From IMG/VR virus record IMGVR_UViG_3300025679_000005: a DNA stretch of 64,000 nt. One strand, 5' to 3'. The stretch is from a virus. Lineage: Duplodnaviria; Caudoviricetes. Each line of letters starts with the position of its first letter. The stretch's first letter is position 1. This document shows, piece after piece, positions 1,959 through 31,677 of the stretch. The translations under genes were made by a program, and so were the position numbers. The notes beneath the pieces were generated by a model that searched no databases, was not told the DNA's origin, and worked only from the letters and a program-made list of their open reading frames with translations.

Positions 1959-4900
1959 CCTCAGAGGCTATTGGCTTCTGAGGTGAATTGAAACGTCTGC
2001 GTAGGTGCTCGTGGCGAGCGTGACCGATTCCGCCTCAGAGGCTATTGGCTTCTGAGGTGAATTGAAACGGGTTGTTCGCAAAACACAGCTAGACCGGCTC
2101 CGCCCCTCAGAGGCTATTGGCTTCTGAGGTGAATTGAAACAAGGAAGTTGAGCGGGACGCGGCCGATACCATGAAGCCTCAGAGGCTATTGGCTTCTGAG
2201 GTGAATTGAAACGTGTCAATCGCATCCAATTGCAGTTGGGCCTTGCTCCCTCAGAGGCTATTGGCTTCTGAGGTGAATTGAAACCGGCTGGATATCGGCC
2301 AATGCCTCGATGTCTCCAATCCTCAGAGGCTATTGGCTTCTGAGGTGAATTGAAACCAGAGCGGGGACACTGTCGCCTCGATTGCTACGGGGCCTCAGAG
2401 GCTATTGGCTTCTGAGGTGAATTGAAACGCCAGCACTACCGATCCAACCGCTTTGACGGTTAGGGCCCTCAGAGGCTATTGGCTTCTGAGGTGAATTGAA
2501 ACTACTGGGTGCGCGATCTTGAGCGCCTCCTAATCCAGCCTCAGAGGCTATTGGCTTCTGAGGTGAATTGAAACCTGGACGGCTATCAGCTCGCTCAAGC
2601 AGACCGAGCCAACCTCAGAGGCTATTGGCTTCTGAGGTGAATTGAAACTCCATGGACACGGCAATGTGTACTTGCCAGCCGTTGCCCCTCAGAGGCTATT
2701 GGCTTCTGAGGTGAATTGAAACCAAACCTATAGCGAGATCACAGCCGCTGTCAGGGCCCCTCAGAGGCTATTGGCTTCTGAGGTGAATTGAAACATCATG
2801 ACCTCTACATCGGGGCCTACAAATCCGTTGCCCCTCAGAGGCTATTGGCTTCTGAGGTGAATTGAAACGTTAGCCGGGGCTTGATTTGGGACGCAATGTC
2901 GGAGCCTCAGAGGCTATTGGCTTCTGAGGTGAATTGAAACAGCGTGAGCTTGTCGGGATGATCTAAGGCCCAACGCCTCAGAGGCTATTGGCTTCTGAGG
3001 TGAATTGAAACGAGACGGAAAGCCGTTTAACGATTTGATCCCCGCTCAGCCTCAGAGGCTATTGGCTTCTGAGGTGAATTGAAACCTACAGTCAGGACTG
3101 ACGTATAGGCGGGCTACCTCGACCTCAGAGGCTATTGGCTTCTGAGGTGAATTGAAACACCATCGAGAGGTTGACCCAGCGGTTTGGCTTGAGCCTCAGA
3201 GGCTATTGGCTTCTGAGGTGAATTGAAACAGGGTGGGGCAGGCGCACACCAGCTGCGTGCGCAGCCTCAGAGGCTATTGGCTTCTGAGGTGAATTGAAAC
3301 CAAAGCCCAAGAAAGCCAAGAGGAAGTAGTGGATTAGCCTCAGAGGCTATTGGCTTCTGAGGTGAATTGAAACGTCTGCAGCTCCTCGATTTTCTCTGAT
3401 GCGATCGATCCTCAGAGGCTATTGGCTTCTGAGGTGAATTGAAACAGGCGGGGAATGCCAAGTTGATCGCGCGGATCCAACCCCCTCAGAGGCTATTGGC
3501 TTCTGAGGTGAATTGAAACCATGGTGGGTTGCTTCGCCGGCCGTATGCTGGGGAGCCTCAGAGGCTATTGGCTTCTGAGGTGAATTGAAACGGGGCGTCA
3601 ACAGGGGACGGAACGAGAGTGAACGATTCCTCAGAGGCTATTGGCTTCTGAGGTGAATTGAAACTTGGTAACGTCGGTCGGCAGCTAGGCCGAACACACG
3701 GAGCCTCAGAGGCTATTGGCTTCTGAGGTGAATTGAAACTTGGCCTTTGAGGTCTTGGCCCTGTGCCTATCTTTGCCTCAGAGGCTATTGGCTTCTGAGG
3801 TGAATTGAAACAGCTACTATTTCCCGCTCTACATCCCAGCGGGCTCGACAGCCTCAGAGGCTATTGGCTTCTGAGGTGAATTGAAACTGGGGGATGCGTT
3901 TGGTCTTGGGCTTGCCCTTGGCATCCTCAGAGGCTATTGGCTTCTGAGGTGAATTGAAACCAAGAAGCGTTTGAACTTGATCGGATCCGCACTGTGCCTC
4001 AGAGGCTATTGGCTTCTGAGGTGAATTGAAACACTTACAACACGTTGCCGGAGACCTGGGAGAGCACCCTCAGAGGCTATTGGCTTCTGAGGTGAATTGA
4101 AACGCGGGGTTTGCGGGGGGCATACCCTCAGCGGCTGACCTCAGAGGCTATTGGCTTCTGAGGTGAATTGAAACCAAGAGCGTCGGGTCATGAATCTGCT
4201 CAAGAAGACATCCTCAGAGGCTATTGGCTTCTGAGGTGAATTGAAACGGCCAGCTTCGGAGCCGCTCTTGGATGTCCTCCGACCAAGCCTCAGAGGCTAT
4301 TGGCTTCTGAGGTGAATTGAAACGCTACGAGGATCCAGGCTAGCTGGCGAATGAACCACCTCAGAGGCTATTGGCTTCTGAGGTGAATTGAAACTAGGGC
4401 AGCCCCTGAGGGGACGGAGCATCCCGTGAGGCCTCAGAGGCTATTGGCTTCTGAGGTGAATTGAAACGCGAACTGCTTGGCCAAGGGAGCGACAGCCTGA
4501 GCGACCCTCAGAGGCTATTGGCTTCTGAGGTGAATTGAAACGAGCTGCAACTGAGCTGCCTGGGATGGCCCAGTAGAGCCTCAGAGGCTATTGGCTTCTG
4601 AGGTGAATTGAAACGACCAACGACCCTCGCCGAAGTGTCGGGACTTCCCGGCCTCAGAGGCTATTGGCTTCTGAGGTGAATTGAAACAGTCCTTGGCGTT
4701 GCCATTCGAGGCAGCCATCGACCCCTCAGAGGCTATTGGCTTCTGAGGTGAATTGAAACATGTAATATAATACGGTATGGAACCTACACACTTAACCTCA
4801 GAGGCTATTTGGCTTCTGATGTGAATTGAAACAAAGACCTCGACACTGGTGGTCGTCGTCGACCCTCAGAGGTCTCTGATCTCTGAGGTGCGTTGAAACG

Positions 4901-7599
4901 ATCGAAAGCGTGAGGTGCTATCAGAGGGTCTATGATCTCTGATCTCTGAGGTGGATTGAAACACACGGATTCGGACCTCATGCTCCGTGTTGACTTCCCT
5001 CAGGGTCATTGATCTCTGAGGTGAATTGAAACCTCCGAATGCTCACGCCGGCAGAGCGTCGTCATGGGGAGCCTCAGAGGTCTCTGATCTCTGAGGTGAA
5101 TTGAAACGAGACGATCCAGGTCGTGGTCGCCACGTGCGGACAAGCCCTCAGAGGTCTCTGATCTCTGAGGTGAATTGAAACGCTCACCTAGTGACCGAGG
5201 AAAAGAAGGTCGATGGCCTCAGAGGTCTCTGATCTCTGAGGTGAATTGAAACGATTCTGCCGCTCCCCCTAAGCGCTCATGTCGAGCGCCTCAGAAGGCT
5301 CTGATCTCTGAGGTGAGTTGAAACGATTCCCGTGTGCCCCGCTACGTCCAATCACGGACGCACCTCAGAGGTCTATGATCTCTGAGGTGAATTGAAACTG
5401 GTAAGAGCCGGTGGCGTATACCTCGAAGTCCGCACTCCTCTGATCTCTGAGGTGAATTGAAACAGGCAGGGGTCACAGAGCTTGCGACCGACCTTGACCT
5501 CAGAGGTCTATGATCTCTGAGGTGAATTGAAACACTTGCTTCGTGGTCATGCCAGGTCGGGGGACACTCAACCTCAGAGGTCTAGGATCTATGATCTCTG
5601 AGGTGAATTGAAACGAATGGGCACGTTGGAATGCACTAAGATGGTTGGCGGCCTCAGAGGCCTATGATCTCTGAAGGTGTATTGAAACAAGGCACTGCGA
5701 GTCTTTGACGCTTCCGCGAAGGCTGTCTCAGAGGTCTATGATCTCTGAGGTGAATTGAAACCTCACGAGCAACAAGAGGCCACGGGCGCAGCCCCGGCCT
5801 CTTTGGTCACTGATCCCGGAGGTGAGTTGAAACTTCAGGAGAACTCAGAGGCTATTGGCTTCTGAGTTGAGTTGAAATTCCTGCTGAATCGTGATGCCTG
5901 TAGCCTAAGTGAGTTGAAACAGCCGTAGCGAATAGCCATGTGAGTAGAGAGGCTACCTGAGGTCAATGATCTCAGAGTGAGTTGAAACGTCGTGATGGAG
6001 CGTGTGCACTCGACGGTCAGAGCCATCCTCTGAGGTCTTTAATCCCCGGAGGTGAATTGAAACGCCAGCGCGACCGTTACGAACGATGCCCGGAGGTCCC
6101 TCTGGGGTCTTTGATCCCGGAGGTGAGTTGAAACACAGACACTCTTGGGCTTTAACATCGTTCCTCAGAGGTCTATGATCTCTGAGGTGAATTGAAACAC
6201 TTCGGAGGCGGCCTTTGGAGGTCACATGTCTACTACCCTCAGAGGTCTATGATCTCTGAGGTGAGTTGAAACAGGGCGGCGCTTCGACAGATGCTCCAAG
6301 ACAACGCACCTCAGAGGTCGTTGATCTCAGAGGTGAATTGAAACGGAGTCTGCTGAAGCAGATCGTCAATAGCGATCTTGGTGCCTCAGAGGTCTCTGAT
6401 CTCTGAGGTGAGTTGAAACACGTGGAGCGGCAGGCCAGCTAGGCTTCTCCGGATCCCTCAGAGGTCTCTGATCCCTGAGGTGAATTGAAACCAGGTACGG
6501 CCAACGTACCCCTTGGCGTGGGACTTCTGAGGTCTCTGATCTTAGAAGTGAATTGAAACATGAAGCCCAGCTCGTCCAGCGCCTTGATGTGCGGGGCCTC
6601 AGAGGTTCTGAGGTGAGTTGAAACGACTCCATCAGTGGACGCTGCGTCCACGCCGGATCCTCTGTGGTGTCATTGATCTCAGAGGTGGATTGAAACCAGG
6701 CCGCTCAGCGGTGTACCTATAGAGGTCTGAGGTCGGGGATCTCGTGAATTGAAACCTGAGCCAACCTCGTTGGACTGCTGGGTATCGAAGGCTTCTGAGA
6801 TCAATGATCTCAGAAGTGAGTTGAAACGCGAGCTGCTCTCACCGTGTCTGACAACCCCGCGGATCCTCTGGCTCACAGAGGTGAGTTGAAACATCAGAAC
6901 TGGCCTGCGAAGGTCGAAGGTCGTCTAGTCCTCTGGGGTCATTGATCCTGGAGGTGAGTTGAAACGTCTGGTCGGAACCCTATAGTGATCGTCAGAATTG
7001 GCCTCCAGGGTCTTTGGATCCTGGAGGTGAGTTGAAACATCGACGACGGCCCGGGAATGCTACCAGATGGCAACCTCAGAGGTCTCTGATCTCTGAGGTG
7101 AATTGAAACGCCGTGGTGGGCGCGTAGTCGCCAGCCTTGATCAAACCTCAGTGGTCTCTGATCTCTGAGGTGGATTGAAACGTTGGGGTGCGATGGGCTG
7201 CATCGGTCCTCAGAGGTCTATGATCTCTGAGGTGAATTGAAACCTCTGAGCTGAGCCGTACGGGTGCAAACCGATCCACTCCTCAGAGGTCTATGATCTC
7301 TGAGGTGAATTGAAACGCGGGTCAGGAATCCGTAGAACAAGCGCTCCAGGAGCGGCCTCAGAGGTCTCTGAGGTGAATTGAAACAACGGTCTGGTGTGGG
7401 ACTGCAAACCGCGGGTGGCTGCCTCAGAGGTCTCTGATCTCTGAGGTGAATTGAAACGTGAGCGAACACAAAGTGCTCTCAACCGCGACCGAACACCTCA
7501 GAGGTCTAGGATCTCTGAGGTGAATTGAAACAGAGGTAGTCGGCAGAGAAGATAGAATTCGGCTTCAGGGCCGACTTTCTTCCTGAAGTGTATTGAAAT
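1959..7599 (+). CRISPR. Type I-C-like CRISPR array, about 80 repeats of 36 nt in two repeat variants
   Basis: CCTCAGAGGCTATTGGCTTCTGAGGTGAATTGAAAC (about 40 copies, 1959-4833), then CCTCAGAGGTCT(C/A)TGATCTCTGAGGTGAATTGAAAC and degenerate variants to ~7599; ~33-40 nt spacers; ATTGAAAC end; adjacent to cas5. Confidence 0.98.
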
Positions 7600-7710: not shown

Positions 7711-8352
7711 ATGGTCGAAATCAAAAGCAAAATGTACAACATCGAGATGCGAGGCCGCTTGGCCTGCTTCACAGCCGTCGAATCGAAGATCGAGCGGGTC
7801 TCGTACCCCATCCCCACCCCCTCAGCAGTAGAGGGCGCCTTGAGTGGCGTCATGGGGAAGCACGAGATCCAATGGCACTTGTCCCAGTGCCGCGTGCTCT
7901 CCAAGATCAGGCATACGCCCGTTCGTCGCAATGAGCTGAAGGAGTTCGGCAACAATCCTGTCTACATTGAGAACAACCGCGCCCAACGCACCACCCTGTA
8001 CCTGAAGGACGTGCACTACGTGTTCTCGGTCTTCATGACGATTCGGCCCGATGCCTTCACCAGGGACATCGTCAAGTACGAGTCCATGTTCGAACGTCGC
8101 ATGGAAGGCGGGCAGTTCGAATACTACCCGTATTTCGGCTTACGGGAACTCGCGGTCAGTCGTTACGCTTTGGTGGACGACCTGAGCCAGTTCACGCCTA
8201 TCCCGTTCTCACAGAACTTCGGTCGGATGTTCTACGGCCACCAGTATCGTGATCGTCGAGTCGTTTCCAGTAAGTTCTGGGAAGCCAAAATCGTCAGAGG
8301 CATCGTCAACTACCCATCGCGAGATGAGATCTTCGGAGAAATTGAAACATGA
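7711..8352 (+). CDS. cas5: Type I-C Cas5 (Cas5d)
   Basis: GRLACFT..ESKIERVSYPIPTPSAVEG, VRRNE, LYLKDVHY, PYFGLRE motifs typical of Cas5d. Confidence 0.93.
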   Translation: MVEIKSKMYNIEMRGRLACFTAVESKIERVSYPIPTPSAVEGALSGVMGKHEIQWHLSQCRVLSKIRHTPVRRNELKEFGNNPVYIENNRAQRTTLYLKDVHYVFSVFMTIRPDAFTRDIVKYESMFERRMEGGQFEYYPYFGLRELAVSRYALVDDLSQFTPIPFSQNFGRMFYGHQYRDRRVVSSKFWEAKIVRGIVNYPSRDEIFGEIET

Positions 8353-10154
8353 GCCAGTTACTCAGCAGCCTATACAGTTACGCGGTGGCCCACTCTCTAG
8401 AGGCTCCGTCAGAAGAGCGCGACTTCCCGCTCAAGTTGGTCTTGAACGAGAGCGGCTTCGTTGGCCTGGAGATCCTGAACCAGGCACTATGCGTTCCACC
8501 ACAAGTCATGATGAGAGGTAACAAGACGAAGCCAAATTTGGGCTACGACAATATCAGCTACGTTTTGGGCATTGGCCTCGTAGAACGAGCAGAGCGCTTC
8601 CCAGCGTTCTGGAAGCACACAATCGAGCAGTTGACCCGGGCCGGGGCACCGGAAGGAGTCCTCACCGCTGTCAAAGCTTTCCAAGACACGCGGGAATCGT
8701 GGAGGGAAGCGGCCCTGGCCTGCACCAGAGCATTTACCGAGGCGGACCCGAAGTTGGTGTTCGAGGGCGGGGAGTGGGTTGTCATTGAAGTTCAAGGCCA
8801 CGGCTATCTGCACAATACTCCAGGTCTTAGGCAAGACATCGAAAATATTGATGTCTTCGAGACAACGGGGATTTGTGCCGTATCGGGAGTTGCCTGTAAC
8901 CCCACACGATTGCATCCCGCCATCAAAGGGGTGCTAAAGGATGCAGTACCACTGGTCTCTTACAACGGCACTGCATACGAATTTGAAGGTCTCGAACAAG
9001 GGGCTAACTTTCCCACCAGTGCGACCGTAGCCCAAGGGTACACGAACGCCCTGAACGACTTGCTGTTCTATGTCCCCGATCGCCCGGGGCGTCGCAAGAA
9101 CGGGATCAATCTTCCCAGTGGTGCCGTTCTGGTGCTGTGGTCCAACGACCCAGAGGTGGATGTACAGCCTCTCATTGATGTCCTGTACGCCTCCAACAAC
9201 AAGGAGGACCGCGAGGTCGTGTCCAGGACTTGGGCCGCTTTTGAAGCCCTCAAGGAGTCTGAGGCAGAGGTCCACGTCTTGCTACTAGTCGGATACAGGG
9301 GTCGGATCTCCATCAATCGTTGGACGACTGTCTCCCTCACGGAGCTGCTGGTCAACCTGCGTAGCTATCGTCAAGCCTTCGCCAAGTTCTCGGAGTTCCC
9401 CAGCATGTACGAGCTGCTGGAGAACCTCAGCTCGGAAAAGCCTCAGATGGAGAATCCGAAGAAATACCTGCCGAAGCAAATTCTGTCGGAGACCCTTAAG
9501 AGTTCCCTCTACGAGGCCGTACTGTTCGGGGAACCCATTCCAAAGTCTGTCTACCAGTACGCTGTCAACCGCATGGTGCGGAGCAACCCCAACTCATACC
9601 CCTCCGAGCACGGATGGTTCCGCCAAATGGCGATCCTAAATGCTTGGATCAGCTTGAATCAACAACAAAAGGACACAATGACTGAGCCCACAAATTCTGA
9701 CGGCCCCCAGGGCCCGCAACGTTGCAACTACATTCCGAAGGACGCCTCCCCTGCTTTTCATGAGGGGCGCTTCCTGGCATGCGCCGAAGAGTATCAGTAC
9801 ATCTATGCCGGCCAAAAACCTGGCACCACAGCAAAAGTCGGCACGCCATTTGGCAGCAAGCTGAGTGAATTCTCGACAAATACTACCCGTTCAAAAGTGG
9901 CCATCCAAAGTGTACTCGTGATTTTCCAGAGAGGGTGCTCTGGACCCAGCGCCAATGTGGTCAGGGAAGAGCTGGATGATGTGACGTTTCACCTGGCTCT
10001 GCATCAGACCCCTGGCCGGGCCACCCCCAAACAACGCCAGGACATCTGTCAAGGCTACTTCAGCGAAAAACTCTACCTTAAGGATCGCAAGGGGTACCGT
10101 GCCCCGCTTCCCCCCACAACTGATGGAGACGAGAACACCTCGTCATCCGTTTGA
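8349..10154 (+). CDS. cas8c: Type I-C large subunit Cas8c (Csd1)
   Basis: GICAVSG...RLHPAIKG...LVSYN...QGANFPTS...YTNALNDLL Csd1 signature; position between cas5 and cas7. Confidence 0.9.
   Translation: MSQLLSSLYSYAVAHSLEAPSEERDFPLKLVLNESGFVGLEILNQALCVPPQVMMRGNKTKPNLGYDNISYVLGIGLVERAERFPAFWKHTIEQLTRAGAPEGVLTAVKAFQDTRESWREAALACTRAFTEADPKLVFEGGEWVVIEVQGHGYLHNTPGLRQDIENIDVFETTGICAVSGVACNPTRLHPAIKGVLKDAVPLVSYNGTAYEFEGLEQGANFPTSATVAQGYTNALNDLLFYVPDRPGRRKNGINLPSGAVLVLWSNDPEVDVQPLIDVLYASNNKEDREVVSRTWAAFEALKESEAEVHVLLLVGYRGRISINRWTTVSLTELLVNLRSYRQAFAKFSEFPSMYELLENLSSEKPQMENPKKYLPKQILSETLKSSLYEAVLFGEPIPKSVYQYAVNRMVRSNPNSYPSEHGWFRQMAILNAWISLNQQQKDTMTEPTNSDGPQGPQRCNYIPKDASPAFHEGRFLACAEEYQYIYAGQKPGTTAKVGTPFGSKLSEFSTNTTRSKVAIQSVLVIFQRGCSGPSANVVREELDDVTFHLALHQTPGRATPKQRQDICQGYFSEKLYLKDRKGYRAPLPPTTDGDENTSSSV
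9678..10154 (+). CDS. cas11: Probable Cas11 from an internal in-frame start in cas8c
   Basis: AAGGA-CACA-ATG at 9669-9680 followed by AFHEGRFLACAEEYQ; internal Cas11 translation is established for type I-C. Confidence 0.6.
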   Translation: MTEPTNSDGPQGPQRCNYIPKDASPAFHEGRFLACAEEYQYIYAGQKPGTTAKVGTPFGSKLSEFSTNTTRSKVAIQSVLVIFQRGCSGPSANVVREELDDVTFHLALHQTPGRATPKQRQDICQGYFSEKLYLKDRKGYRAPLPPTTDGDENTSSSV

Positions 10155-11131
10155 TCGACTCTCAAAACACAAATAGGAACAAAATGGCACCGAAAAAAGC
10201 TACTGCTGCTGCAATTCTCGAAACCCCGTCCAACACAGCTGTCGAGAAATCCCACTCCGACACCGTGGTCGATCGTCGCATCGACATCTTCATCGTGTGG
10301 GACATCACCGCAGGGTCTCCTCAAGGGGATCCTGCTCAACTCAACAACCGTCCTCGTGAGGACATCGACACCGGCAACGGCATGTTCACGGATGCTGGCT
10401 GGAAACGCCACATCCGTGACTACATCATGATGGCCTACGAGGGCAAGGAAGGTCTGGACATCCACATCCGTCAGAAAGCGATCTTGTCAGAGGGCGTTCT
10501 CGATGCCCAAACCAAGCTCGGGATCAAGCCCGCGGATGCCCAGAAAGACGCAAATCAAACTCGTGTCCGCGACGCCATGTGCAAAAGCTACTTCGATGTC
10601 CGAGCATTCGGCGAAGTTGTAGCCCACAGCACCGCCACCAACTCCGGCAAGATCACTGGCCCTGTCCAGTTCACGCACTTCTGGAGCCAAGATCCCTTGG
10701 ACACCATGGAGATCAAGGGGACCCGCGTGGCGGTCGCCAACCAAGAGCGCTCGGACAGCATGGCCGGGTTCAACCAGGACTTCAGCATCAAGTACGTGGT
10801 CCCGTACGCCCTGTTCCACGGAAACGGCTTCGTGTCCCCCTTCTGGGCCAAGAAGACGGGATTCACCTGGGGCGACTACGAAGTGCTGATCGAAGCCATG
10901 AAGAACCTGTTCGAGAATCGTCGAACATCTTCGAGCGGGCTTCGGACTACCCGAAAGATCATCGCTTTCGAGCACAGCACCCACTTGGGCTGCGCTCCGG
11001 CGGCCGATCTCTTCGATCTGGTCAAGATCGTCAAGAAGAACCCCGACAAGCCGGCTCGTGCCTACTCGGATTACGAGATCACGATCGACGAGGCGAATCT
11101 GCCTGCCGGTGTAACCGTCAAGGTGTACTGA
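10151..11131 (+). CDS. cas7: Type I-C Cas7 (Csd2); probable start ATG 10184
   Basis: GSPQGDP...NRPR..D...G.FTD..WKRHIRDY, FDVRAFG, ITGPVQF, KYVVPYALF motifs. Confidence 0.95.
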   Translation: MIDSQNTNRNKMAPKKATAAAILETPSNTAVEKSHSDTVVDRRIDIFIVWDITAGSPQGDPAQLNNRPREDIDTGNGMFTDAGWKRHIRDYIMMAYEGKEGLDIHIRQKAILSEGVLDAQTKLGIKPADAQKDANQTRVRDAMCKSYFDVRAFGEVVAHSTATNSGKITGPVQFTHFWSQDPLDTMEIKGTRVAVANQERSDSMAGFNQDFSIKYVVPYALFHGNGFVSPFWAKKTGFTWGDYEVLIEAMKNLFENRRTSSSGLRTTRKIIAFEHSTHLGCAPAADLFDLVKIVKKNPDKPARAYSDYEITIDEANLPAGVTVKVY

Positions 11132-11147
11132 TCCCCTGACGGCTCTT

Positions 11148-11191
11148 GCAGGGGGAGGGTATGACACCTTCCCCCTGCTTCCTTCTATTTT
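11148..11191 (+). terminator. Intrinsic terminator-like hairpin between cas7 and helicase
   Basis: GCAGGGGGAGGGT-ATGAC-ACCTTCCCCCTGC followed by a T-rich tract. Confidence 0.6.
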
Positions 11192-11209
11192 CACACACGA
11201 AAGATTTAA

Positions 11210-13588
11210 ATGACTCGCTGTCTACCGTCTCGACACCAGCCCTCCGTGGGTGCGGTGCCTTTTTGTCTGCATACTCGATACTATCAGCCAGATGTCTTCA
11301 AGGAGCTGACAGAGCTAGTGCCCTCAGAGCCACAGGTGGCATTGCTGTTGCCTACAGGCAGCGGTAAGACAACGCTGATTCTGTCTTTCATCGCCTGGGT
11401 GTTCGAGCAGCCAAAGCCACCTTTCTCCGAAGTCTACGTCATCGCCCCTCAGAAGACCGTCCGCGATGGCTTCAAAGGCAATAAGGGGGAGAACCGTCAA
11501 TTCCAAGTCAATCCAGGAGAGGCCTGCTATGAGCTTGTGTCCGCAGAGGATCTGGATTCGAGGACTTCTCTGGACGAAACGGGGGATCTCGATACCAAGC
11601 TTTTAGAAGTGCCCAAACCTGGAACAAAAGTGTGGTTCGCAGAGACTCATGCCAAATTCGCACTTGAGAAGCTGCTCTGCAACTTGCAGAACCACTGCTG
11701 TACTGCTGACTTCCACGGCAAGCTATTGGTGGTGGATGAGGGGCACCACGCCAAGCTGGGCAACAACATCCGAGCCTTCATCGACTATTGGGTGGCCAAT
11801 GGTGGGCACGTACTGTACGCCACTGCCACTCCGGGAGACGGTATCCCTGAGACCGCCAAACTGATCCAACGCACTCTCACTGAGCTAATGGCGCCGCCAT
11901 ACGACCTCCCGCCGTGTGCCCCCACAAGGATCCTATCTAATTTCATCGATACGGGGTTGGCGGAGGACTCCGAGCAAGACGCTGATGGGACTCATTGTGC
12001 TCCTATCGGGACTGAGGCCGAGTTGCGCAATGTCTTCGAGGACATGGCCACTCGCTGGAATGACGCTGGTCGTCCCAAGACTATTGTCCGGATCAAGCCT
12101 AAGCAAGACACTCAGCACAACATCAAAATGCTTCTTATGGCCAAAAAAGCCTTTGAGGACGTAGGTGCGAGAGCTTTTGCCGTCAGAGCTGATGTCAACT
12201 TGAAAACAGGATCCGAAATCAAACGCATTGACGGCTTGATTTCCTCCGAGGACCTCTCAGAAAAGCTGGCTAAGGAGCGCCGTCGGTCGTATTCAGAATC
12301 CGAGTGCGACGTGATCATCACGCTCAACACAATGATTGAAGGTGCCGATTGGCCCCTTTGCAGTCATGTCTACTTGTGGGGCGTGCCCGGCAACTGTCAG
12401 ACCACTGTTCAGGTACTGGGGCGAGCCACTCGTCTAAGGACCGGTATCTCAGACTACCCGCAGCAATGGTGCGAGACCACTCAGATCGTGTTCTTTGTGG
12501 GTGGTGTCTCTGATCTTCGTAATACCCACGGCACTACCATGCTTTTGGTAGGGTGCTCACTAGCTAACTACACTCTAGGTGCTCAATGGTCTACGTTCCG
12601 AGAGCATTTGAAGCTGGTCAAGGAACACCCACAGATCTTGGAACCAGCTCGTGAAGAGGCAACGGCGGTCCCCGCGGAACGTGAGAGAGAGATCAGACTG
12701 GGTATTTCGGGGCTGTCAAAAACCATTGAAAAGTTCCAAAATACCAAGGAAAGGGTGGAGAACTCCGAAGTTCACGAGAGGCGCAAACGGATAATCGAGA
12801 AGCATCTGTCCACTCTTCCAGACGGACCCGAGCGCCGATTTGGCATAAGCTTTGCCCTAGGGGAGTATCCTGGGTATCAAGAGAAATACCGCAAAGCATT
12901 GAGGGGACGCCTTCAAACGGAGAGCTTCAGCGAGGCCCATAAGGCTGTCCTGGATGAACTCCTGGAGCACTTCCTGAACTCAACTGAGGTGCTCCCTAGA
13001 GCGGGGTCCCTAATGGACCTGGAGGATATGGGACTACTCCAGTTGACTGCCCCTGTTCTTGAGGGATTGAAGGACAAGATGCTTAAGGAGTGTCCTCCTA
13101 GGTTGTACCGGAGTAAAGTCATTAACAACACTCAGAGCTTCGTTATCTCGAATCCACACCTGTCCATTTCAGAATTGCTGGATCAACCGGACCCCGCAAG
13201 CCCTGACGGGTACACCTTCAGGGCATACGACGAGGCCATTCGAGCTGGCTCACGTGGCCTGGAGAGGCACGATGACGGCCTAGGCGGTATGGTCTGTGAG
13301 CGAAGCTCGTGGTCCAAGGAATGGGTGACATCAGCTCATCTGGACCAGCTAAAGGGTGGGACTAGTCAAAAGAGGTTCGCTTCAGAGTTTAAGAAACACC
13401 CTTTGGGGTTCTTTTTCGGGCCTCCTATCACCAATCTCCTGAAGGGTCTACCCTTGGATGTCTGTGCCCGTCTGACTGTCGGCGAAGCGGTCCGCATTGG
13501 TCGTTCAGAATGGACTAAGGAGCAATACGCCTCCTTTAAGGGCCGTCTTCAGCACATGACTGTGCAGGAGGCGCTAGATGGCGTCTAA
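11210..13588 (+). CDS. SF2 helicase associated with type I Cascade genes; no HD nuclease domain
   Basis: Motifs I LPTGSGKT, Ia APQK, II DEGHH, III ATATP, V EGADWP, VI QVLGRATR; motif I at about residue 46 leaves no room for an N-terminal HD domain. Confidence 0.85.
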   Translation: MTRCLPSRHQPSVGAVPFCLHTRYYQPDVFKELTELVPSEPQVALLLPTGSGKTTLILSFIAWVFEQPKPPFSEVYVIAPQKTVRDGFKGNKGENRQFQVNPGEACYELVSAEDLDSRTSLDETGDLDTKLLEVPKPGTKVWFAETHAKFALEKLLCNLQNHCCTADFHGKLLVVDEGHHAKLGNNIRAFIDYWVANGGHVLYATATPGDGIPETAKLIQRTLTELMAPPYDLPPCAPTRILSNFIDTGLAEDSEQDADGTHCAPIGTEAELRNVFEDMATRWNDAGRPKTIVRIKPKQDTQHNIKMLLMAKKAFEDVGARAFAVRADVNLKTGSEIKRIDGLISSEDLSEKLAKERRRSYSESECDVIITLNTMIEGADWPLCSHVYLWGVPGNCQTTVQVLGRATRLRTGISDYPQQWCETTQIVFFVGGVSDLRNTHGTTMLLVGCSLANYTLGAQWSTFREHLKLVKEHPQILEPAREEATAVPAEREREIRLGISGLSKTIEKFQNTKERVENSEVHERRKRIIEKHLSTLPDGPERRFGISFALGEYPGYQEKYRKALRGRLQTESFSEAHKAVLDELLEHFLNSTEVLPRAGSLMDLEDMGLLQLTAPVLEGLKDKMLKECPPRLYRSKVINNTQSFVISNPHLSISELLDQPDPASPDGYTFRAYDEAIRAGSRGLERHDDGLGGMVCERSSWSKEWVTSAHLDQLKGGTSQKRFASEFKKHPLGFFFGPPITNLLKGLPLDVCARLTVGEAVRIGRSEWTKEQYASFKGRLQHMTVQEALDGV

Positions 13589-14360
13589 CAATAGGGCTTC
13601 CAAGACAACTGCAAAGAGGCAGGATGACATCTCGGAGCACGACAACCCTGAGAAGCAGAAGTCCAGACAACGGAATTTGGATTTCTTGATCAAGTACGGT
13701 CAGGCTATCTGGGAAGACCACCCAGGCGGTATCCTCAAGCCCCATGTCATTGAATTGATCGGCAAATCCGGTCATCTGTCCTACGAAACCTTCAAGGGAC
13801 ATCTAGCGAATCCTGACCTCGATTTCATTGGTGTTGAGTGGGCTCGCGAGGTTTTCTATCATGCGTGGGACAAACTCGACACATCAGGCCAACCATACAA
13901 ATTTCCATTGGAGCGCGGTGAGATCAGTAAGTACCTTGTGTCCAATTGGAGCAAGAAACCGGCCAGCGTGATCATATGGGACTCTACAAATTCTATGGGC
14001 AACCGTAGATGGTGGTCCAGTCAGGGACGCCGGCTCCAAGAAGCTCTTAAGGGGCACTCCAAAGCTTTTGGGGAAGTCGCTCTCCTACTGACAATGAGCT
14101 TGAGAGGCCGCCTAGACACTCATCAAAAGCACGTTGAAAACCTAAAGATATTTCGGCAGAAGCTGATGGACATTTTCAGAGTGCCCGAAGGGGCCATCAT
14201 CAAAGACCACACAGTAGTAGAGGCCTCCAACCCACTGGGCGAATTCGAGAGTCTCGAATTCTACAAGGCCAAAAGTACCTCAATGGTGACTTTCAGAGCT
14301 ATCTACAGCGCAGACGGGCACCACCGTATGCGAGGCCTACCTTCAACGGAGATCAAATGA
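13578..14360 (+). CDS. Hypothetical protein, possible degenerate SAM-methyltransferase fold
   Basis: HVIELIGKSG, DFIGVEW, RGEISKYL, VIIWDS follow the Rossmann MTase motif order; overlaps helicase stop. Confidence 0.5.
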   Translation: MASNNRASKTTAKRQDDISEHDNPEKQKSRQRNLDFLIKYGQAIWEDHPGGILKPHVIELIGKSGHLSYETFKGHLANPDLDFIGVEWAREVFYHAWDKLDTSGQPYKFPLERGEISKYLVSNWSKKPASVIIWDSTNSMGNRRWWSSQGRRLQEALKGHSKAFGEVALLLTMSLRGRLDTHQKHVENLKIFRQKLMDIFRVPEGAIIKDHTVVEASNPLGEFESLEFYKAKSTSMVTFRAIYSADGHHRMRGLPSTEIK

Positions 14361-14776
14361 GCACAATCCAAACAAAAATGGCTCGTGAAGCCATCAAAGC
14401 CTGCGTCTACAGTCAGGCCACCACCTCAGAGACCATTCGAACTCTCATCGAGGTGATCCGTCACGAGTATCCTGGTAAGACCGACACCGAGATCTTGACG
14501 ATTCTCGCTGAGGAGACCGACTCTGCTCCCATCGTCACGGCTTCGATCAAAGTCGAGAAACACCTGAAGAAGTCAGGGGGCTCCACTCCCGAGGCGGTCC
14601 TTGCTTTCGCCAAGGCCAAGACGACCTTCAGCTCGAAAGAGGCCCAGAACTACTTCAAGGTGACTGCCCAGAAGTTGGCGGGCTCCTTGGCCGTCCTGAC
14701 CAAACGAGGGGTGATCCGTAAAGCTCCCAAGATGAGCGAAGATGAAACTTCACTCTACAACCTAACGCACCCTTAA
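14357..14776 (+). CDS. Small protein with probable C-terminal winged HTH
   Basis: FSSKEAQNYFKVTAQKLAGSLAVLTKRGVI; ATGA-coupled; paralog of next gene. Confidence 0.6.
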   Translation: MSTIQTKMAREAIKACVYSQATTSETIRTLIEVIRHEYPGKTDTEILTILAEETDSAPIVTASIKVEKHLKKSGGSTPEAVLAFAKAKTTFSSKEAQNYFKVTAQKLAGSLAVLTKRGVIRKAPKMSEDETSLYNLTHP

Positions 14777-14844
14777 CTCCCCAGCTACCTAGGCCGTAAC
14801 AACACCCACATCCGGAACACTTCCCTCCGGTGTATAAGGAACCA

Positions 14845-15249
14845 ATGCCCACTCTCAATAGCTCGATTCTCAAGTCCGAGGCCGCTCGCATCAAGCGGTC
14901 CATCATCAACCTCCAACCCTTGTTTCCCGGCAAGAACGAAATCGAGATCCTATCGAACGTACTCGCTGAGATCAAGATGAGCCCCATCGATGCGTCCCTT
15001 TCCAAGATCAGCCGTGCCGTCAAAGGCTGGGCAGGTAAGAACGGTGAGTCCACCCCCGAGGACGTTCTCGCCTACGCCAAGGAAGAGAAGACCTTCAGCT
15101 CGAAGGAAGCTCAAGATCGCTTCAAGGTGAGTCCCCAGAAGATGGCCGGCTCATTGGCCGTTCTAACTCGCCAAGGACTTCTACGCAAGCTAGACGATGC
15201 TGCTGAGGACGGGACATCCGCCTGGCGCTACGGCAAGCGCAAGAACTGA
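14845..15249 (+). CDS. Paralog of upstream winged-HTH protein
   Basis: FSSKEAQDRFKVSPQKMAGSLAVLTRQGLL; GGTGTA promoter motif 10 nt before ATG 14845. Confidence 0.6.
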   Translation: MPTLNSSILKSEAARIKRSIINLQPLFPGKNEIEILSNVLAEIKMSPIDASLSKISRAVKGWAGKNGESTPEDVLAYAKEEKTFSSKEAQDRFKVSPQKMAGSLAVLTRQGLLRKLDDAAEDGTSAWRYGKRKN

Positions 15250-15336: not shown

Positions 15337-15600
15337 ATGAAGATCACGCACCTCATAGCGGACGCATTCGCTCTAGTAGAAGCCGGAGGTTTCATGGTCG
15401 GCACCATTCGAGTGAACCCCTCAGATTTGGCTTTGATTCAAGGCTCGGACCAGTTCTCACAGGAAAATGGCCGCCTCTGGACGGCTGCTGTGATCGCTGA
15501 CCAAACCGTCGAAGCAGGTACGTTCGTGACCGGCGAGATGAACCCGAAAACTCTGAAAGTGGAGAAGGAATCCACCCATTCTCTGTGTCTTCCAAATTGA
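15337..15600 (+). CDS. Hypothetical protein
   Basis: 87-aa ORF preceded by GGTGTA motif at 15320. Confidence 0.65.
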   Translation: MKITHLIADAFALVEAGGFMVGTIRVNPSDLALIQGSDQFSQENGRLWTAAVIADQTVEAGTFVTGEMNPKTLKVEKESTHSLCLPN

Positions 15601-15842
15601 TTCTTTTTCCGGTGTATGATCAGGGCAGAGGCCGAACCCTAGTCAAGTGCACTTGACTGAACCCGGTTATCTCCCTGGGCGCCCTGCTTCGAAACTGGGG
15701 GCCCAGGACTTTTTTGATCTTCGCCCTTATGTCCCACCGTCGGTCGACCGTATAGATAGGTGTTCGGCTTCTGTTGGCTGGGCCCCTTGGTGGTTCTTGG
15801 GTGATTTCGGTTGCTTGTTTCTTGGTGTTTCTGGTTAGGTTA

Positions 15843-15885
15843 GAAAGCCCCGTAGGTTGAAAGACTTACGGGGCTTTCGCCTTTT
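15843..15885 (+). terminator. Intrinsic terminator
   Basis: GAAAGCCCCGTA(G)G...CTTACGGGGCTTTC stem followed by CTTTT. Confidence 0.75.
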
Positions 15886-19726: not shown

Positions 19727-21148
19727 TCAGGGAGTCGTATCTTCGGCGTTTGAGGCTGTGCCAGTACTCTTTGCAGAGATTGCCCTGGTAGTAAGCCTAC
19801 GGCTAGAAGCTGCTAGCTCGGTAGTAGACCTTCCTGAGGAACTGTCCCCGGCCCGAAGGGCTAGGTATCGCTGACTCAGGAGGGTTTTCACTTCGGAGGG
19901 ATGATCATAGATCCCAATCTCTTTGTCCTCGGAACGTCCGAGCAGATTGCGACCTCCTACCACATCCGCATGAGAAATCCTGCCGCACCCACGGCATTGA
20001 AACTTGATCCCACTTCTGTTGGATCGTGAAACGTAGCCACAGGATGGGCACATCTGAGAAGTGTATGCCGGATTCACAACAATGACCGGAGCCTTGGTGG
20101 CTAACGACTTGTGCAGAGCCTTATAAGCGAATCGCTTTTGCCCCTTACAACCCCTGAGATCCAAGTCCTCGATGACGAACGCATGTCCTGGGTAGTCTCT
20201 AACGAGCGAGTTGGCAACGAACCCTGTGCTTGTTTTGATGAGACCGCTGAGGTGCTCTTCCAAGCGATCTAGGCGAGGAGAATTGATCCTCAATCCCTGA
20301 CGTTGCCTATTGGCTCTGAGGGTTTTGACCTTGGCATAAAGGGTATCGAACTTGGGCTTCAGATCAGCTCCGTAGATTCGACCGGCCGACGTAGCCGCGA
20401 TCACGTTGAGGCCGACATCCACTCCTACGCGAGGTGCTGACAGGTCAAGCTTAGGCTCCTCAATTAGCTTCTTCTCAAGGACTTCGACTCGCCATCGGCC
20501 CCGGCGGTCTTTGCGGATCATACAGCCATTGACGATCTCGTCAGGGGATTTGACGTGAGGGTTGGCGACGATCGGGACTTGGATCCTACGACCCTTCTTG
20601 AGATTGGAGAAGCCCAGCCACCAGGCACTGATTTTGGTATCATCGATCTTGCGGATGGCACTAGTATGCACCGAAAGGCGTATTCCAATTCGATCAGAGA
20701 TCGTGGGGGTCTTACCTACTAGGTCCTTGTCAAGAAGGAACGACCAGTACTGATCGAGAACTTCCTGAGAGATCAGGTCAGTGGCATGGTCGTAACTGTA
20801 TTTTCCGATAGTGAGAAGGGCGATTTTGGTCGATTCGGTGATCAAGCCCTCCTTAGCCAATCCCTTGATGTGTCGCTTGAGCTTCCTGACGTAGGTGGTT
20901 GTAACCCAAGCTGAAACAATCTCGATGGCATGCTGCTGGCAAGCCATTACAATGTTAGTGGAAAGAACCCTCTCCCTGGGAAAGAACCTGAGAAGTTCTC
21001 CTCTAGGAATCCCCATCCTCATGGACGAGATCATAGCTTCGACGCAAGCCTGGAGATACAGAAGGTATTCTACGTGAAGGGCTTCGAGCGCACGGATCTT
21101 CCCTGGGTTTGCTTGGGGGTGAAAGAAAAGGACTCGTGAGCGTTTCAC
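19727..21148 (-). mobile_element. tnpB: TnpB (RNA-guided RuvC nuclease), no tnpA
   Basis: VGVDVG (RuvC I), FVIEDL (II), VNPAYTSQMCPSCG...CRGCG...ADVVGGRNL (Zn finger + III); right-end hairpin GATACGACTC/GAGTTGTATC at the 3' end. Confidence 0.9.
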
Positions 21149-22307: not shown

Positions 22308-25300
22308 TCAGTCATCATCATTGATCAGAGCCCACAGCTGCCGACCAATGCTCATCCCCGACAGATGTTGGCTCCCCACACCCGCCGAGGCCAGCATGCT
22401 CTCATTGTCGAGCCCGTCAGTCGATATCGAGATCTCGACTTTACGCATGAGCAACTCGTACATCTGCTCTTGTAGGGTGTCCTTGAAGACAGCGAAGTGG
22501 ATGCGGGTGTCCTTCTTCTGACCAATACGGTCTACTCGACCGACTGCCTGCCGGAACATGATCGGGCTACACATCGGGTTCTCCATCCACAATTCTGTGG
22601 AGAAGTGGACCAACGAATTCAAACCCGTGCTCACGGAGGCGGGGTTGACAATCAATACCCGGGAATTCTTCTTGACTACGTGCTGCTCTATCCACGTTTG
22701 GCGCTTACTCGTGGGGACGCGGTCAGCATAAAGGATCGGGGCCTTCACCCCTAGGCGCTCCTCAATGAGGCGGGCAATCCTAGGAAGCAACGTCGTGTGC
22801 CAAGCAAAGACCATGGCATTGCGACCCTCGGCCAGTTCCGCCTTGAGGGTGTCGAGCATCCACTGCTCCTTGGCAGAGACCTCGGAAGCTGAGAACTGCT
22901 TACCAGTCGCCACGATCCCAGCGCCCACGGACTCGGGATACCGGATCTCGTAGGTCCCGTCATCGTTATTGCCAGTGTCCGCCGTTGATCGATCCAAGTA
23001 GCTGGGCAGCTCTGACAGCTGGCCGAACAGCTTCCCCGACAGGTCCGGATCGAAGCGATCCTTCTTGATCTGATCCCTCAATGAGGCCAGAAGGGATTTG
23101 TAGCTGCCCAGTAGCTCGGAATCAGCTTCCACCACATGCTTCGTGACAGTGCAGGGCGGGATGTCAATGGCTAGGTCTGCCTTGTGCAAGGTCACAGACA
23201 CGGGCAGGAGGTGCCGGAACAAGAACAGGGGGAGAATGCCAGGGGCATCTCCGGCTGTGCGTTCGCTTCGCTGCACACGATCGGACATGGCCCCGAAGGC
23301 TACGACCTCCCCAGACTCCTTATCCTTGTCAGAAATGATTCGCTTCCGGTAGCCGTAGCGGTCAATGAACCGTTGGGCATCTTCCCTGGCGAACTCATGC
23401 CGGAAGTCCGGAGACAGCGCCCACATGTTCGTGTACAAGGACTTCGCGTAGCCGTTCATGACAGAGCCGGTCATGAACAGGGTGGGGATACCAAGGCCGG
23501 TTAGAGAATGGTAGGCTTGCGATTGAGCTGAGTCCGCATTAGCTGCCTCATGGCTTTCGTCTAAGCATATGAAGTCAAACAGATTCGGAGAGTATTTGGC
23601 GATGTGCTTCGCCAACGCCACTCGACGGGGTTCGGGTACCGCCTGGAACAAAGCCTCTCCGCATTCTGGGGTCAAGTAGATCTTACCACAAGCAATAAGC
23701 CCCGTAAGGATGGCCTCAGCAAGGTCTAGACTGTTGGCCTCCTTGGCATCTAGGGTCAAAACCCCGTCAGTCCACTTGAGCATCCCCAAATGGGTGTTGT
23801 GACCGTAGGACCTGGCCGCCTTGTAGTACATGTCCCAGCTCTGCCAATTGCTGGTCTCAAATAGTCCGGTCAGCTCCTTTTGGAGTTCCGTTCCCTCTTC
23901 AAGCAGGTAAACCAGGTTCTTCGCCATGTCCTTGATGTAGTATTCCTGGTGTTGGGACAGGATCCGAACATAGCGAGCAATTCGAGCAGGGTCGTAGGCG
24001 GCCATCAACAGCTTGGCGAACAGCTTGGGCAGCTCACCTTCGTTGGTCGAGTTGAGCATCATCTTGGCGAACACGAGATCGGTCATGTGCTCGACGTTGG
24101 CTGGCTGGAACACCCACTCGGGGCGTTCGTCTTTCGGAACCAGTGCGTTCTTGTCGAGGATCCTGTTCAAGTGCACCGTCCTCAGAATGCCCCGAAGGCG
24201 ATGACTCTCAGGGAGGTGCTCTAGAAGCTGCAAGCCGAACGAGTAGGCGGCTAGGCCCAGATCATCCTTGATCGAAATGTCTCTGTTCTCGCAACGAAGG
24301 CGCTTCTTGACGGCATCTTCCTTGGGCAGCTCACCGCCACACTTCGGGCAGCTCTTGGTAACGGCTTCCCAGCCATGGCCTAGCTTGGCCGTTTCCCGGG
24401 ACAGAATCGCCACCAGAAAGCGTTCCGCTGGAATGTCAGCCAATGCCTCGATGTCTCCAATGTCCTTCAAGACCCGCACCTCAGCGTCAGGAAACGTGGC
24501 CGAGGTCTCATTGGTCCAAGAGGTCAGAAGATGAGGCGGGCAAAGGACAAGCATTCTCTTGGCGATTGTCCTAGCGACCGTTAGTGCCAGGCAGCTCTTA
24601 CCACTGCCGATTTCGCCCAAAAGCTGGGCAGATCGATACTTTCTGTCCTTGGCCTTGTTCCCACCCAAAAGCATCACCAACGCCTTGGCTGAGTGCTCCT
24701 GAGCTTTGAAGAGTTTTCTCGCCGTTGGGGCCAAGGTCACCGAGTCCGCATCCCGCTTGGGATCGTACATGACAGGGCACTGTTGCTGCATAACCCCCAT
24801 GAGGCTAGGCCCGTAGTGCTTGAGCAAGTCCTCAATGGTCATTTTCTCGACATCGAGGACTTTCGACTCCCCACCGGATCCCAGGGTCGTGTACTTTTTG
24901 GTACTCAAGTCCAAGATCGTCGTAATCAGCTTCGGCTGCTGAACCTGAACAACCGAGGTCACATCCCCGTCCTTGTTTTTCTTCTCCTCGACGGTGACGA
25001 ACTCCCGATCGAACACTCCCTTGACCAAGAGGTCGGGGAGGCCTTCGGTTTCTGAAGATACCCGGCGACCATTGAACAGCCCTGAGGCGATCCCCGCGGC
25101 AATGTGGGCGGGCCTAGGGGGCGTAGCCAACTTGTACGTCCGGAACATCAGCTCTTCTACGGGAAGCTCAGGGATGATGTGAGGCACCGGGACGTAAGAG
25201 CCCAGGCGATTGCTTTGGGTCCAAGGACGAACCTTCTTCAATAGCCCAATGCGGTCGAAGGCCCGCATGCCCCAATCGGTCGTGTAGACGTTGCTCTGCG

Positions 25301-30462: not shown

Positions 30463-31677
30463 TCATAAAGACACCCATTCTTCTCTGGACTTCGGCTGAG
30501 AACCTACCTGCCGTAAGGCCTGTAGGTTCTCGTTGACCGCGCTCAAACCGAGCGCTTTAATGTTACACCCCGCATTCTGGTCACGATCCATGACGAGACC
30601 ACACTCGGGGCAATTGTGGATGCGGAACCGTAGTCCCTTGGGGACGACGGTTCCGCACGCATGACACCTCTGTGTAGTTCCTCGTGGATCAACTCCTACC
30701 GCTAACTTACCAGCTTCTTCCGCTTTGCATTTTAGGCAGTGGATTGTAATTGACCAGGACGCATCCGAGATTGATTTCGCTAGATTGATCTTCGGCTTCC
30801 CATCTCTGGAAGGACCTCTGGAAGGACCTGAGATCATCTCCTGAATCGAGAGGTCCTCGTAACAGACGATGTCATTCGTTTCAAAGAGGGACTTAGCCAG
30901 CTTCCTAGCGTGATCTAGCCTCTGATTCTTGATGTGAGCGTGAGCCCGCTGGACTAGGGTCTTGGCCCGTCTCCTAGAGGAGCTGCCACGGCGCTTGCGT
31001 TGCATAGCGCGTTGGCGTTGGGCCAAAAGGTCTTGCCCCGCCTTGAAATAACGAGGATTCTCGATCGTTGTTCCGTCATCAAGGGTACCGAAGTGGGTGA
31101 GTCCTAGGTCAATGCCGACGGACTTCGTGGGGTCGATCACGACCTCAGGGGCTACTCCCAAATCGCACTGGAAGATCACAAACCATTTACCGGCTTCTCT
31201 TCTAACTGAGACATCAAGGATCTCTCCTTTATGGGGCCGATATTGGTTGAATTTGACTAGGCCTAGCTTGGGGATCTTGACTCTGGCAGAGGAAACCCTC
31301 TTGATCTTAGGCTCAATTTTCGTAGTAGTCTGAAGAGCAAACGAGTCGTAGCGCTTGTAGCTACGGAACCGCGGGAAGCCAGGGGCTTCGCCCGTCTTCA
31401 CGCGGCGGAAGAATGCCTTGAAGGCATCGTCTAATCGCTTGAGCGGAGATCGAAGGATCGTGGCTGGGATCGCTTCGAAGTCAGGGTCTTGAGATCGAAT
31501 GATGGTCAGGGACTTCTGTTGATCATAGAGAGTCAGACTCTTTTTGAACTTTAGGTAGTGACTTTTCCGCTCTTCCAGGGCGCCGTTGTAGAGGCTATTG
31601 CACATGAAGAGCCAGTTGGCCATTCTGGCCTCCTGGTCCTTCGTGGGATACAGCGGATAACGAAAAGAGCGAATCAT
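30463..31677 (-). mobile_element. tnpB: IS200/IS605-family TnpB, no tnpA
   Basis: N-terminal FRYPLYPTKDQ HTH, SVGIDLGL, CYEDLSI, VDPRGTTQRCHACG...CPECG...DRDQNAG; hairpin TTTCATGGGC/GCCCATGAAA (31703-31735) upstream. Confidence 0.93.

Follow-up and report, generated by a model that had tools for sequence, protein, structure and literature searches.

An adaptation-less type I-C CRISPR locus of a huge phage with a helicase–methyltransferase-fold cassette in the place of Cas3

We analyzed a stretch of 64,000 nucleotides (nt), hereafter the window, from the virus record IMGVR_UViG_3300025679_000005 of IMG/VR (Duplodnaviria; Caudoviricetes). The window is part of a phage genome of ~465 kb, and the negative results on Cas genes given below hold for the window. 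As presented in Table 1, it carries a CRISPR array, the Cascade genes cas5c, cas8c and cas7c and an effector cassette, all co-directional in one gene row on the + strand. The ORF map puts the open reading frames (ORFs) where an earlier note, made from the sequence alone, had placed them. The locus is the adaptation-less type I-C derivative of huge phages noted by Al-Shayeb et al. (2020), and the place of Cas3 is taken in it by a cassette of a nuclease-less helicase, a methyltransferase-fold protein and winged helix-turn-helix (wHTH) proteins. From the arrangement of these genes, we lean towards the view that Cascade recruits the helicase and the methyltransferase-fold protein, as a pair, as its effector instead of Cas3.

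Table 1. Features of the type I-C locus and of the genes that follow it (positions in the window; aa, amino acids; bp, base pairs; SF2, superfamily 2; SAM, S-adenosylmethionine).
Feature	Position	Strand	Basis or remark
CRISPR array	1959..7531	+	~70 or more repeats, directly upstream of cas5
cas5c (Cas5d-type; presumed pre-crRNA endoribonuclease; no cas6 seen)	7711..8352	+	Profile matches
cas8c (Csd1), large subunit, 601 aa, divergent	8349..10154	+	Csd1 match covers residues 48-485
cas7c (Csd2), backbone subunit	10151..11131	+	Profile matches; public gene calls begin at 10184
GC-rich 13-bp hairpin and T-rich tail, between cas7 and the helicase gene	11148..11178	+	Folding
792-aa ResIII-type SF2 DExH ATPase/helicase	11210..13588	+	Motor ~20-470; residues 470-792 all-alpha (predicted)
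260-aa class I SAM-dependent methyltransferase-fold protein	13578..14360	+	Predicted fold, alignment motifs
139-aa protein with a C-terminal ~60-aa winged-helix domain, probable regulator	14357..14776	+	Alignment with relatives
Tandem paralogue of the 139-aa winged-helix gene	14830..15249	+	50% identity, E 1e-30; weak FeoC-like wHTH match
87-aa small ORF, unassigned	15337..15600		No Pfam or PHROG match
63-aa small ORF, unassigned	15647..15838		No Pfam match
Strong 16-bp terminator-like hairpin, then T-run	15843..15878	+	Probable operon end, after two small ORFs

The three Cascade genes were assigned by profile matches. Cas5c was matched by Pfam Cas_Cas5d (1.7e-14), by TIGR01876 (6.3e-28, above cut-off) and by PADLOC Cas5c (1.7e-35), and Cas7c by Pfam Cas_Cas7 (5.6e-62) and TIGR02589 (7.7e-67, above cut-off). 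Cas8c was matched by Pfam Cas_Csd1 (7.8e-46) and is divergent, since its score of 139 bits to NCBIfam TIGR01863 lies under the equivalog cut-off of 218 bits. The type I-C cas5-cas8c-cas7 row announced in the earlier note is thus confirmed by Pfam, NCBIfam and PADLOC. The absence of cas3, cas1, cas2 and cas4, which it had also claimed, holds within the window, as the families that PADLOC reported for the remaining 61 ORFs include none of Cas1, Cas2, Cas3 and Cas4; likewise, its reported families for the window ORFs include no Cas6 model. By analogy with canonical type I-C systems, the C-terminal ~115 aa of Cas8c may supply Cas11c. In two distantly related loci (L008, 4818-6630, and L009, 4954-6752), Cas8c is only ~440 aa long and a separate ~160-aa ORF stands before cas7. 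As a guess, this ORF would be a stand-alone Cas11; it had no BLAST similarity to the C-terminus of the window Cas8c.

The gene that follows Cascade encodes a helicase whose profile matches are ResIII (residues 21-208) and Helicase_C (332-409) only. Neither Pfam nor NCBIfam nor PADLOC matched it to a model of Cas3, of an HD domain or of a nuclease, and the DinG model of PADLOC did not match it either. In 12 helicase homologues, the Q-motif Q26, the Walker A residues G52/K53, the DExH residues D176/E177/H180, T207 of motif III and Q401/R405/R408 of motif VI are invariant, and the motor motifs are, as judged from this alignment, intact. The 792-aa SF2 helicase of the earlier note, with all motor motifs, without an HD domain and distinct from Cas3, was therefore recovered in the profile matches and in the alignment. 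The family is rare, with five full-length homologues (39-44% identity) and four motor-only partial ones in 5.8 billion proteins. No relative was found in IMG/VR or in the species-representative genomes with the helicase or the methyltransferase alignment, and scanning metagenomes with the profile of the helicase yielded nothing but remote SF2 helicases, none of which is accompanied by the partner gene.

The AlphaFold2 (AF2) model of the helicase, with a predicted local distance difference test (pLDDT) of 56, resembled generic superfamily 1 (SF1) and SF2 motors (XPB, RecQ, MDA5, SNF2, EcoP15I Res, HsdR, DinG) at Z scores of at most 11.2, with no subfamily standing out. Weak neighbours included EcoP15I Res (Z 10.2), the type ISP enzyme LlaBIII (Z 9.7) and an HsdR fragment (Z 9.2), and the match to the CRISPR-associated DinG 8e2w (Z 9.1, root-mean-square deviation (rmsd) 8.4) was no better than those to generic SF1/SF2 motors. 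The C-terminal ~330 aa, which the earlier note had left without assignment, had no Pfam family, no sequence relative in the PDB and Atlas scores at noise level (at most 0.82); no structural match was obtained either, the modelled C-terminus being barely probed since the motor fills the match lists. One C-terminal motif gave a weak hhalign match (probability 26%, E 7e-4) to a stand-alone helicase described below, which serves as a lead only. No invariant His was present in this region among six close homologues, and the sole C-terminal invariants of an eight-member alignment were the hydrophobic or aromatic residues L536, F588, P662, F670, Y673 and W705. The lack of an invariant catalytic-type residue, together with the lack of a model match, argues against a cryptic HD, HNH or PD-(D/E)xK nuclease. 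A hidden nuclease, which the earlier note had named as what would overturn its reading, was thus not found by profile models, C-terminal conservation or the all-alpha prediction, within the reach of these methods. The conservation pattern favours a protein- or DNA-binding role for the C-terminal region.

The helicase stop and the start of the next ORF overlap by 11 nt (13578 vs 13588), and this second ORF in turn overlaps the start of the 139-aa ORF by 4 nt (14357 vs 14360). Its 260-aa product had no match in Pfam, NCBIfam, PHROG or PADLOC, ten of its relatives had no Pfam match save one weak unrelated one, and a sequence search of the PDB with the family profile gave no match. Four close orthologues share 44-48% identity with it, and a profile search of 1.84 billion representatives yielded a family of 51 members of 207-273 aa. 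With the resulting alignment of 52 sequences (~23% mean column identity), AF2 produced a model with a pLDDT of 90.4 and a predicted template modelling score (pTM) of 0.88. Compared with the PDB, this model had 242 matches at E<=1e-3 (down to 1.2e-5), and the 50 listed were all methyltransferases or methyltransferase-fold proteins. The best AFDB cluster reached a template modelling (TM) score of 0.69/0.75, and VIA a Z score of 12.6 (rmsd 3.5 A, 179 residues aligned), with many methyltransferase subfamilies tied at Z 11-12.6. Ribosomal RNA (rRNA) methyltransferases of the RlmI type are among the Atlas/Swiss-Prot neighbours, and the nearest characterised structural neighbours include the rRNA and transfer RNA (tRNA) methyltransferases RlmI, TrmN and Trm14. 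The model confidently predicts a class I SAM-dependent methyltransferase fold, that is, a Rossmann-like alpha/beta fold with a seven-stranded sheet.

Conservation over the 52 sequences follows this fold. Motif I, after beta1, reads E59-x-x-G62-x-S-G65 (E59 90%, G62 94%, G65 92%), D/E87 of motif II ends beta2 (98%), D115 represents motif III (81%, E in the window), and D135 lies at the end of beta4, at the motif IV position (100%). Besides these, K26 of the N-terminal helix is found in 100% and N172, after beta5, in 98% of the sequences, and W146, Y229, M236, T238 and R240 are near-invariant too. Motif IV has the form N-x-D, not DPPY, and the family has no invariant Cys, so that the substrate class is not assignable from the sequence.

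The two genes stay together far beyond the window. The five close helicase homologues (39-44% identity) all lie in an operon of the order cas5-cas8c-cas7-helicase-~245-aa ORF-~70-aa ORF, with I-C-type arrays downstream in three of the five loci. Each of three distant homologues of the methyltransferase-fold protein (21-24% identity), found on contigs of 18-197 kb, is encoded after a ResIII helicase of 733-766 aa, and the helicase is preceded there by cas5-cas8c(~440 aa)-(~165-aa ORF)-cas7. Two of these three helicases could be compared with that of the window and were 23-26% identical to it; the one from L009 aligns over residues 25-698, C-terminal motifs included. Arrays lie downstream in both distant loci with readable DNA, L008 and L009, and L008 encodes tRNA-synthetase-type and Ro60-type domains, which are typical of huge phages. 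Overall, the methyltransferase gene follows the helicase gene in 8/8 independent Cascade loci examined, and cas3 is absent from all eight. The earlier note had described two translationally coupled accessory ORFs; the coupling stands, and what it had missed is the methyltransferase fold, the wHTH domain and the tandem duplicate of the second gene.

The pair was also found on its own. In L010 (8001-11866, on an 84-kb contig), a 980-aa helicase (P0009) is followed, with a 4-nt overlap, by a 308-aa methyltransferase homologue (hhalign 99.7%, E 2.6e-26). No Cascade is nearby, and the neighbours are an Xre-type helix-turn-helix gene and a serine recombinase. Helicase and methyltransferase thus form a two-gene unit in its own right, and Cascade is linked to it in eight of the nine partner-gene loci with an assessable gene context. 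Since the pair occurs without Cascade, Cascade most likely captured a pre-existing module, which would parallel the capture of DinG or of Tn7 proteins by other class 1 effectors; the stand-alone pair of L010 may represent this module as it was before its capture, in its ancestral state.

RNA-guided silencing or unwinding after the manner of DinG, as suggested in the earlier note, is plausible, but the presence of a methyltransferase-fold partner widens the mechanistic options beyond it. One of them would keep the helicase as sole effector, with silencing driven by the motor as in type IV-A and the methyltransferase-fold protein as a non-catalytic adaptor or a SAM-sensing regulatory subunit. 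The fully intact motor motifs and the lack of a detectable nuclease in the helicase are in its favour, as is the type IV-A precedent of a nuclease-independent, helicase-dependent Cascade-like system, as described in PMC11519345; in addition, the window methyltransferase deviates at near-invariant positions in an ORF that is still intact. However, SAM motifs I-III, D135 and K26 are conserved over 52 sequences at ~23% mean column identity, a pattern seen more often in active enzymes than in scaffolds, and we regard this explanation as unlikely.

Conservation of this kind would suit RNA-guided modification, in which an active methyltransferase would be delivered by Cascade and the helicase, and methylation programmed by the CRISPR RNA (crRNA) would mark or silence the target rather than destroy it, for instance on the displaced R-loop strand or on DNA reeled in by the motor. 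The confident class I fold, the conserved SAM-binding motifs and the invariant Asp at the motif IV position are consistent with this, as are the strict pairing with the helicase, the Cascade linkage counted above and the rRNA/tRNA methyltransferases among the structural neighbours. Furthermore, the ~245-aa protein has no target-recognition domain, so targeting must come from a partner. In contrast, N-x-D at motif IV differs from the (D/N/S)PP(Y/F/W) of DNA amino-methyltransferases, no Cys is invariant as it is in 5-methylcytosine (m5C) enzymes, the window copy is substituted at two near-invariant positions, and the similarity of fold is generic (Z 11-12.6 across many subfamilies). Nor is it evident how methylation of its DNA would harm a competitor. 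With these points on both sides, we consider RNA-guided modification quite improbable.

A motor next to a methyltransferase-fold protein also recalls restriction-modification enzymes. The two proteins could work as Res/Mod or HsdR/HsdM with Cascade as the specificity subunit and a nuclease recruited in trans, and the ResIII family of the motor, its pairing with a methyltransferase-fold protein and the weak neighbours EcoP15I Res, LlaBIII and the HsdR fragment all point in this direction. Nevertheless, the motor has no match to a PD-(D/E)xK or other nuclease domain, the methyltransferase has neither a target-recognition domain nor a DPPY-type motif, and these neighbours fit the motor no better than SNF2, XPB, RecQ or DinG do. 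Such an arrangement appears to us highly improbable. The resemblance to type III and type I restriction-modification systems is a ResIII-family SF2 motor with a helical C-terminal region, encoded beside a SAM-methyltransferase-fold protein and probably working with it; the differences are the motor without a nuclease domain, the small methyltransferase without a target-recognition domain or DPPY, and a specificity that would be that of the crRNA.

Beyond the pair, the operon contains putative regulatory elements. The C-terminal ~60 aa of the 139-aa protein aligns with the ~70-aa proteins encoded after the methyltransferase gene in the close relatives, and this domain looks like a winged-helix DNA-binding domain; on these similarities, both wHTH proteins would be operon regulators. 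A hairpin with a T-rich tail lies between cas7 and the helicase gene (11148-11178), and 9 of the 13 bp in its stem are GC pairs. Its folding energy of -29.4 kcal/mol corresponds to z = -3.5, and none of 200 shuffled sequences folded as well. The earlier note had taken this terminator-like hairpin for a less expected feature of the locus; the hairpin is real, and it is not an oddity of one genome, as it lies just after the cas7 stop in 6/7 distinct architectures (the window, L001, L003, L004/5, L006 and L008). The exception is L009, where the genes abut. Hairpin sequences vary among the loci, with folding z from -0.6 to -5.8 and every shuffle beaten in 4/6 loci, and conservation of position with divergence of sequence suggests a function. 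As most copies have no canonical U run, full termination is unlikely, and the hairpin is likely an attenuator or an mRNA 3'-stabilising stem that keeps the Cascade subunits in excess over the effector.

The array consists of two parts. Its leader side (1959-4759) has 39 identical 36-nt repeats, and its second part (4760-7531), next to cas5, has ~30 detected repeats that are increasingly degenerate and carry a different loop sequence. In this trailer half, the repeats, most of which preserve the stem and the TTGAAAC tail, are irregularly spaced, with gaps of 95-220 nt; gaps of ~100 nt or larger suggest that further repeat copies were missed. The trailer half is the older part of the array. The repeats combine a stem-loop with an I-C-type 3' ...GAATTGAAAC tail and are separated by spacers of 35-40 nt, so that the canonical I-C repeat feature of a stem-loop and a 3' ATTGAAAC handle is present in the window array. 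Spacer 5 (2285-2320) is identical at 30/36 positions to the phage's own gene for a 1226-aa DUF6094 methyltransferase-helicase (24426-24461). The mismatches are at positions 3, 4, 5, 7, 10 and 13, that is, in the 13 nt proximal to the protospacer adjacent motif (PAM), and TTC stands immediately 5' of the site, the PAM resting on this single self-like protospacer. This match would fit the PAM of canonical I-C systems, a spacer taken up from a sister phage, and seed mismatches through which the phage escapes self-targeting. The three leader-proximal spacers had no exact match in metagenome or viral contigs. The I-C repeat was absent from the species-representative genomes, a collection far from complete, and from the IMG/VR sequences searched, and no host was identified from it.

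The array bears on the question of whether Cas3 could act in trans. Recent spacer uptake is implied by the 39 identical repeats. It needs Cas1/Cas2/Cas4, an adaptation machinery absent from the window, from another source, and a compatible host system may therefore exist. The Cas3 of such a host I-C system, or one encoded in another part of the phage genome, would then serve this Cascade, and the cassette would be an independent neighbour, for example a DNA-modification or anti-defence unit. The I-C-like repeats and the one TTC PAM seen agree with this, as do the terminator-like hairpin that parts the cassette from cas7 and the existence of the pair without Cascade. By contrast, eight independent loci preserve the order and strand of the genes with helicase identity down to 23-26%, none of the eight Cascade loci has a cas3, and no species-representative genome carries the repeat, within that incomplete collection. 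Supply of Cas3 in trans to a cassette unrelated to Cascade is, in our view, very unlikely.

We therefore return to recruitment of the pair by Cascade, for which the following course of events can be proposed. Cas5c would cut the array transcript into crRNAs with an 11-nt ...AUUGAAAC handle, and Cascade would find TTC-flanked protospacers, mainly in competing related phages, and form an R-loop. The helicase-methyltransferase pair would be recruited there instead of Cas3, and its ATP-driven motor would, like DinG in type IV-A, hinder the target's replication or transcription with no dedicated nuclease involved. The methyltransferase-fold partner would modify nucleic acid at the target or serve as a SAM-binding adaptor. 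The wHTH proteins would autoregulate the operon, and the hairpin after cas7 would set a high Cascade-to-effector ratio.

Several points weigh against this proposal. We infer both the recruitment of the helicase by Cascade and its binding to the methyltransferase from synteny and gene overlap alone. The pair occurs without Cascade in L010, and the terminator-like hairpin between cas7 and the cassette means that the two halves could be separately expressed units. Beyond the 64-kb window, a cas3 may lie elsewhere in the ~465-kb genome, or a host Cas3 may be available. The helicase model is of low confidence. In addition, the window methyltransferase is the lone outlier of the 52 sequences at W29 (S) and N172 (T) and departs from the consensus at N133 (I) and D115 (E), and from these substitutions this copy may be catalytically impaired, or relaxed or altered in function. 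A complex prediction of helicase residues 20-792 with methyltransferase residues 24-250 scored 0.00; it was run without controls and is evidence neither way.

Part of this locus has already been described. CasPhi-bearing huge phages were reported to carry a type I-C variant without Cas1/Cas2 and with "a helicase instead of Cas3" (Al-Shayeb et al., 2020, Nature 578:425, PMC7162821), the locus and a helicase tree being given in Extended Data Fig. 9 of that paper. The window shares with this variant a phage with CasPhi, a Cas5d-like Cas5, Cas8c and Cas7, the lack of Cas1, Cas2 and Cas6, and an unidentified helicase in the place of Cas3. The Cas3-less, helicase-bearing I-C core is thus already published as an observation, and the earlier note's mention of a helicase-substituted type I variant in CasPhi-bearing huge phages proved correct (PMC7162821; a CasPhi homologue lies in the window). 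The window phage very probably belongs to the CasPhi phages of that paper or is closely related to one of them. What differs is that "methyltransferase" occurs 0 times in the main text of PMC7162821, and that the partner gene, the wHTH gene, the hairpin and the stand-alone pair are not described there, nor is functional work. In the literature searched, which did not include the 2022 survey in Cell of CRISPR systems encoded by viruses, we found neither a later characterisation of the variant nor a methyltransferase reported as linked to Cascade. The obligate, deeply conserved methyltransferase-fold partner, the occurrence of the pair outside CRISPR, the wHTH genes and the conserved hairpin were not found in that literature.

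Canonical type I-C systems have the order cas3-cas5c-cas8c-cas7c-cas4-cas1-cas2, as in Desulfovibrio vulgaris, Bacillus halodurans and Pseudomonas aeruginosa. The window has in common with them the Cas5c/Cas8c/Cas7c families, stem-loop repeats ending in ATTGAAAC and an apparent TTC PAM. It differs by the lack of the Cas3 HD-helicase and of the adaptation module, by a Cas8c under the NCBIfam equivalog cut-off, and by an effector, a ResIII helicase with a methyltransferase-fold protein, that sits after cas7 and not before cas5.

Type IV-A (e.g. PMC11519345) likewise unites a Cascade-like complex, the absence of adaptation genes, a mobile element and a helicase that replaces the nuclease. Its interference is described there as nuclease-independent, a property that the window system may share. 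The subunits are Csf proteins in type IV-A and I-C Cas5/Cas8/Cas7 in the window, and DinG is XPD-like, unrelated to the ResIII-type motor, and has no methyltransferase partner in type IV-A. CRISPR-associated transposons (CASTs; type I-F3, I-B and V-K) offer another parallel, with a nuclease-free Cascade that has lost Cas3 and the adaptation genes and has joined a pre-existing non-CRISPR machine. In the window, however, this machine is a helicase-methyltransferase pair and not a Tn7-like transposase, and no transposon ends were seen.

Other CRISPR-related elements accompany the I-C locus. The 776-aa CasPhi/Cas12j homologue lies at 40240-42570 (- strand) and matches CasPhi-2 (PDB 7LYS) with E 2.1e-135. 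Its gene adjoins an array of its own (39378-40148), whose 36-nt repeat differs from that of the I-C array, with a tyrosine integrase (38185-39024) beside it. A short array with yet another repeat (33607-33862) lies ~6 kb from the CasPhi array. PADLOC reported four Cas12f-like ORFs in all in the window; two smaller Cas12f/TnpB-like genes are at 19727-21148 and 30463-31677 (both - strand), one of them with the full IS605 OrfB domain set. Three other assemblies of the same phage were 100% identical over the compared stretches, with the array included in two, and neither the operon nor the array was matched at the DNA level in the phage GenBank collection.

Class 1 systems in which Cas3 was swapped for another machine, such as DinG (type IV-A), Tn7 proteins (CASTs) or HNH fusions, have each shown a new RNA-guided output. 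If the cassette described here acts on targets, it would be a compact nuclease-free silencer or a natural programmable modifier. The huge-phage Cascade as an RNA-guided platform that loads a translocase with a methyltransferase, writing a mark on competitor or host DNA or RNA rather than cutting it, is a prospect to which we give little credence; if true, such RNA-guided methylation would add a new class to the known outputs of CRISPR effectors and would amount to a programmable epigenetic writer of natural origin. Either outcome, silencer or modifier, would matter for the biology of phage-phage conflict and as a source of tools.

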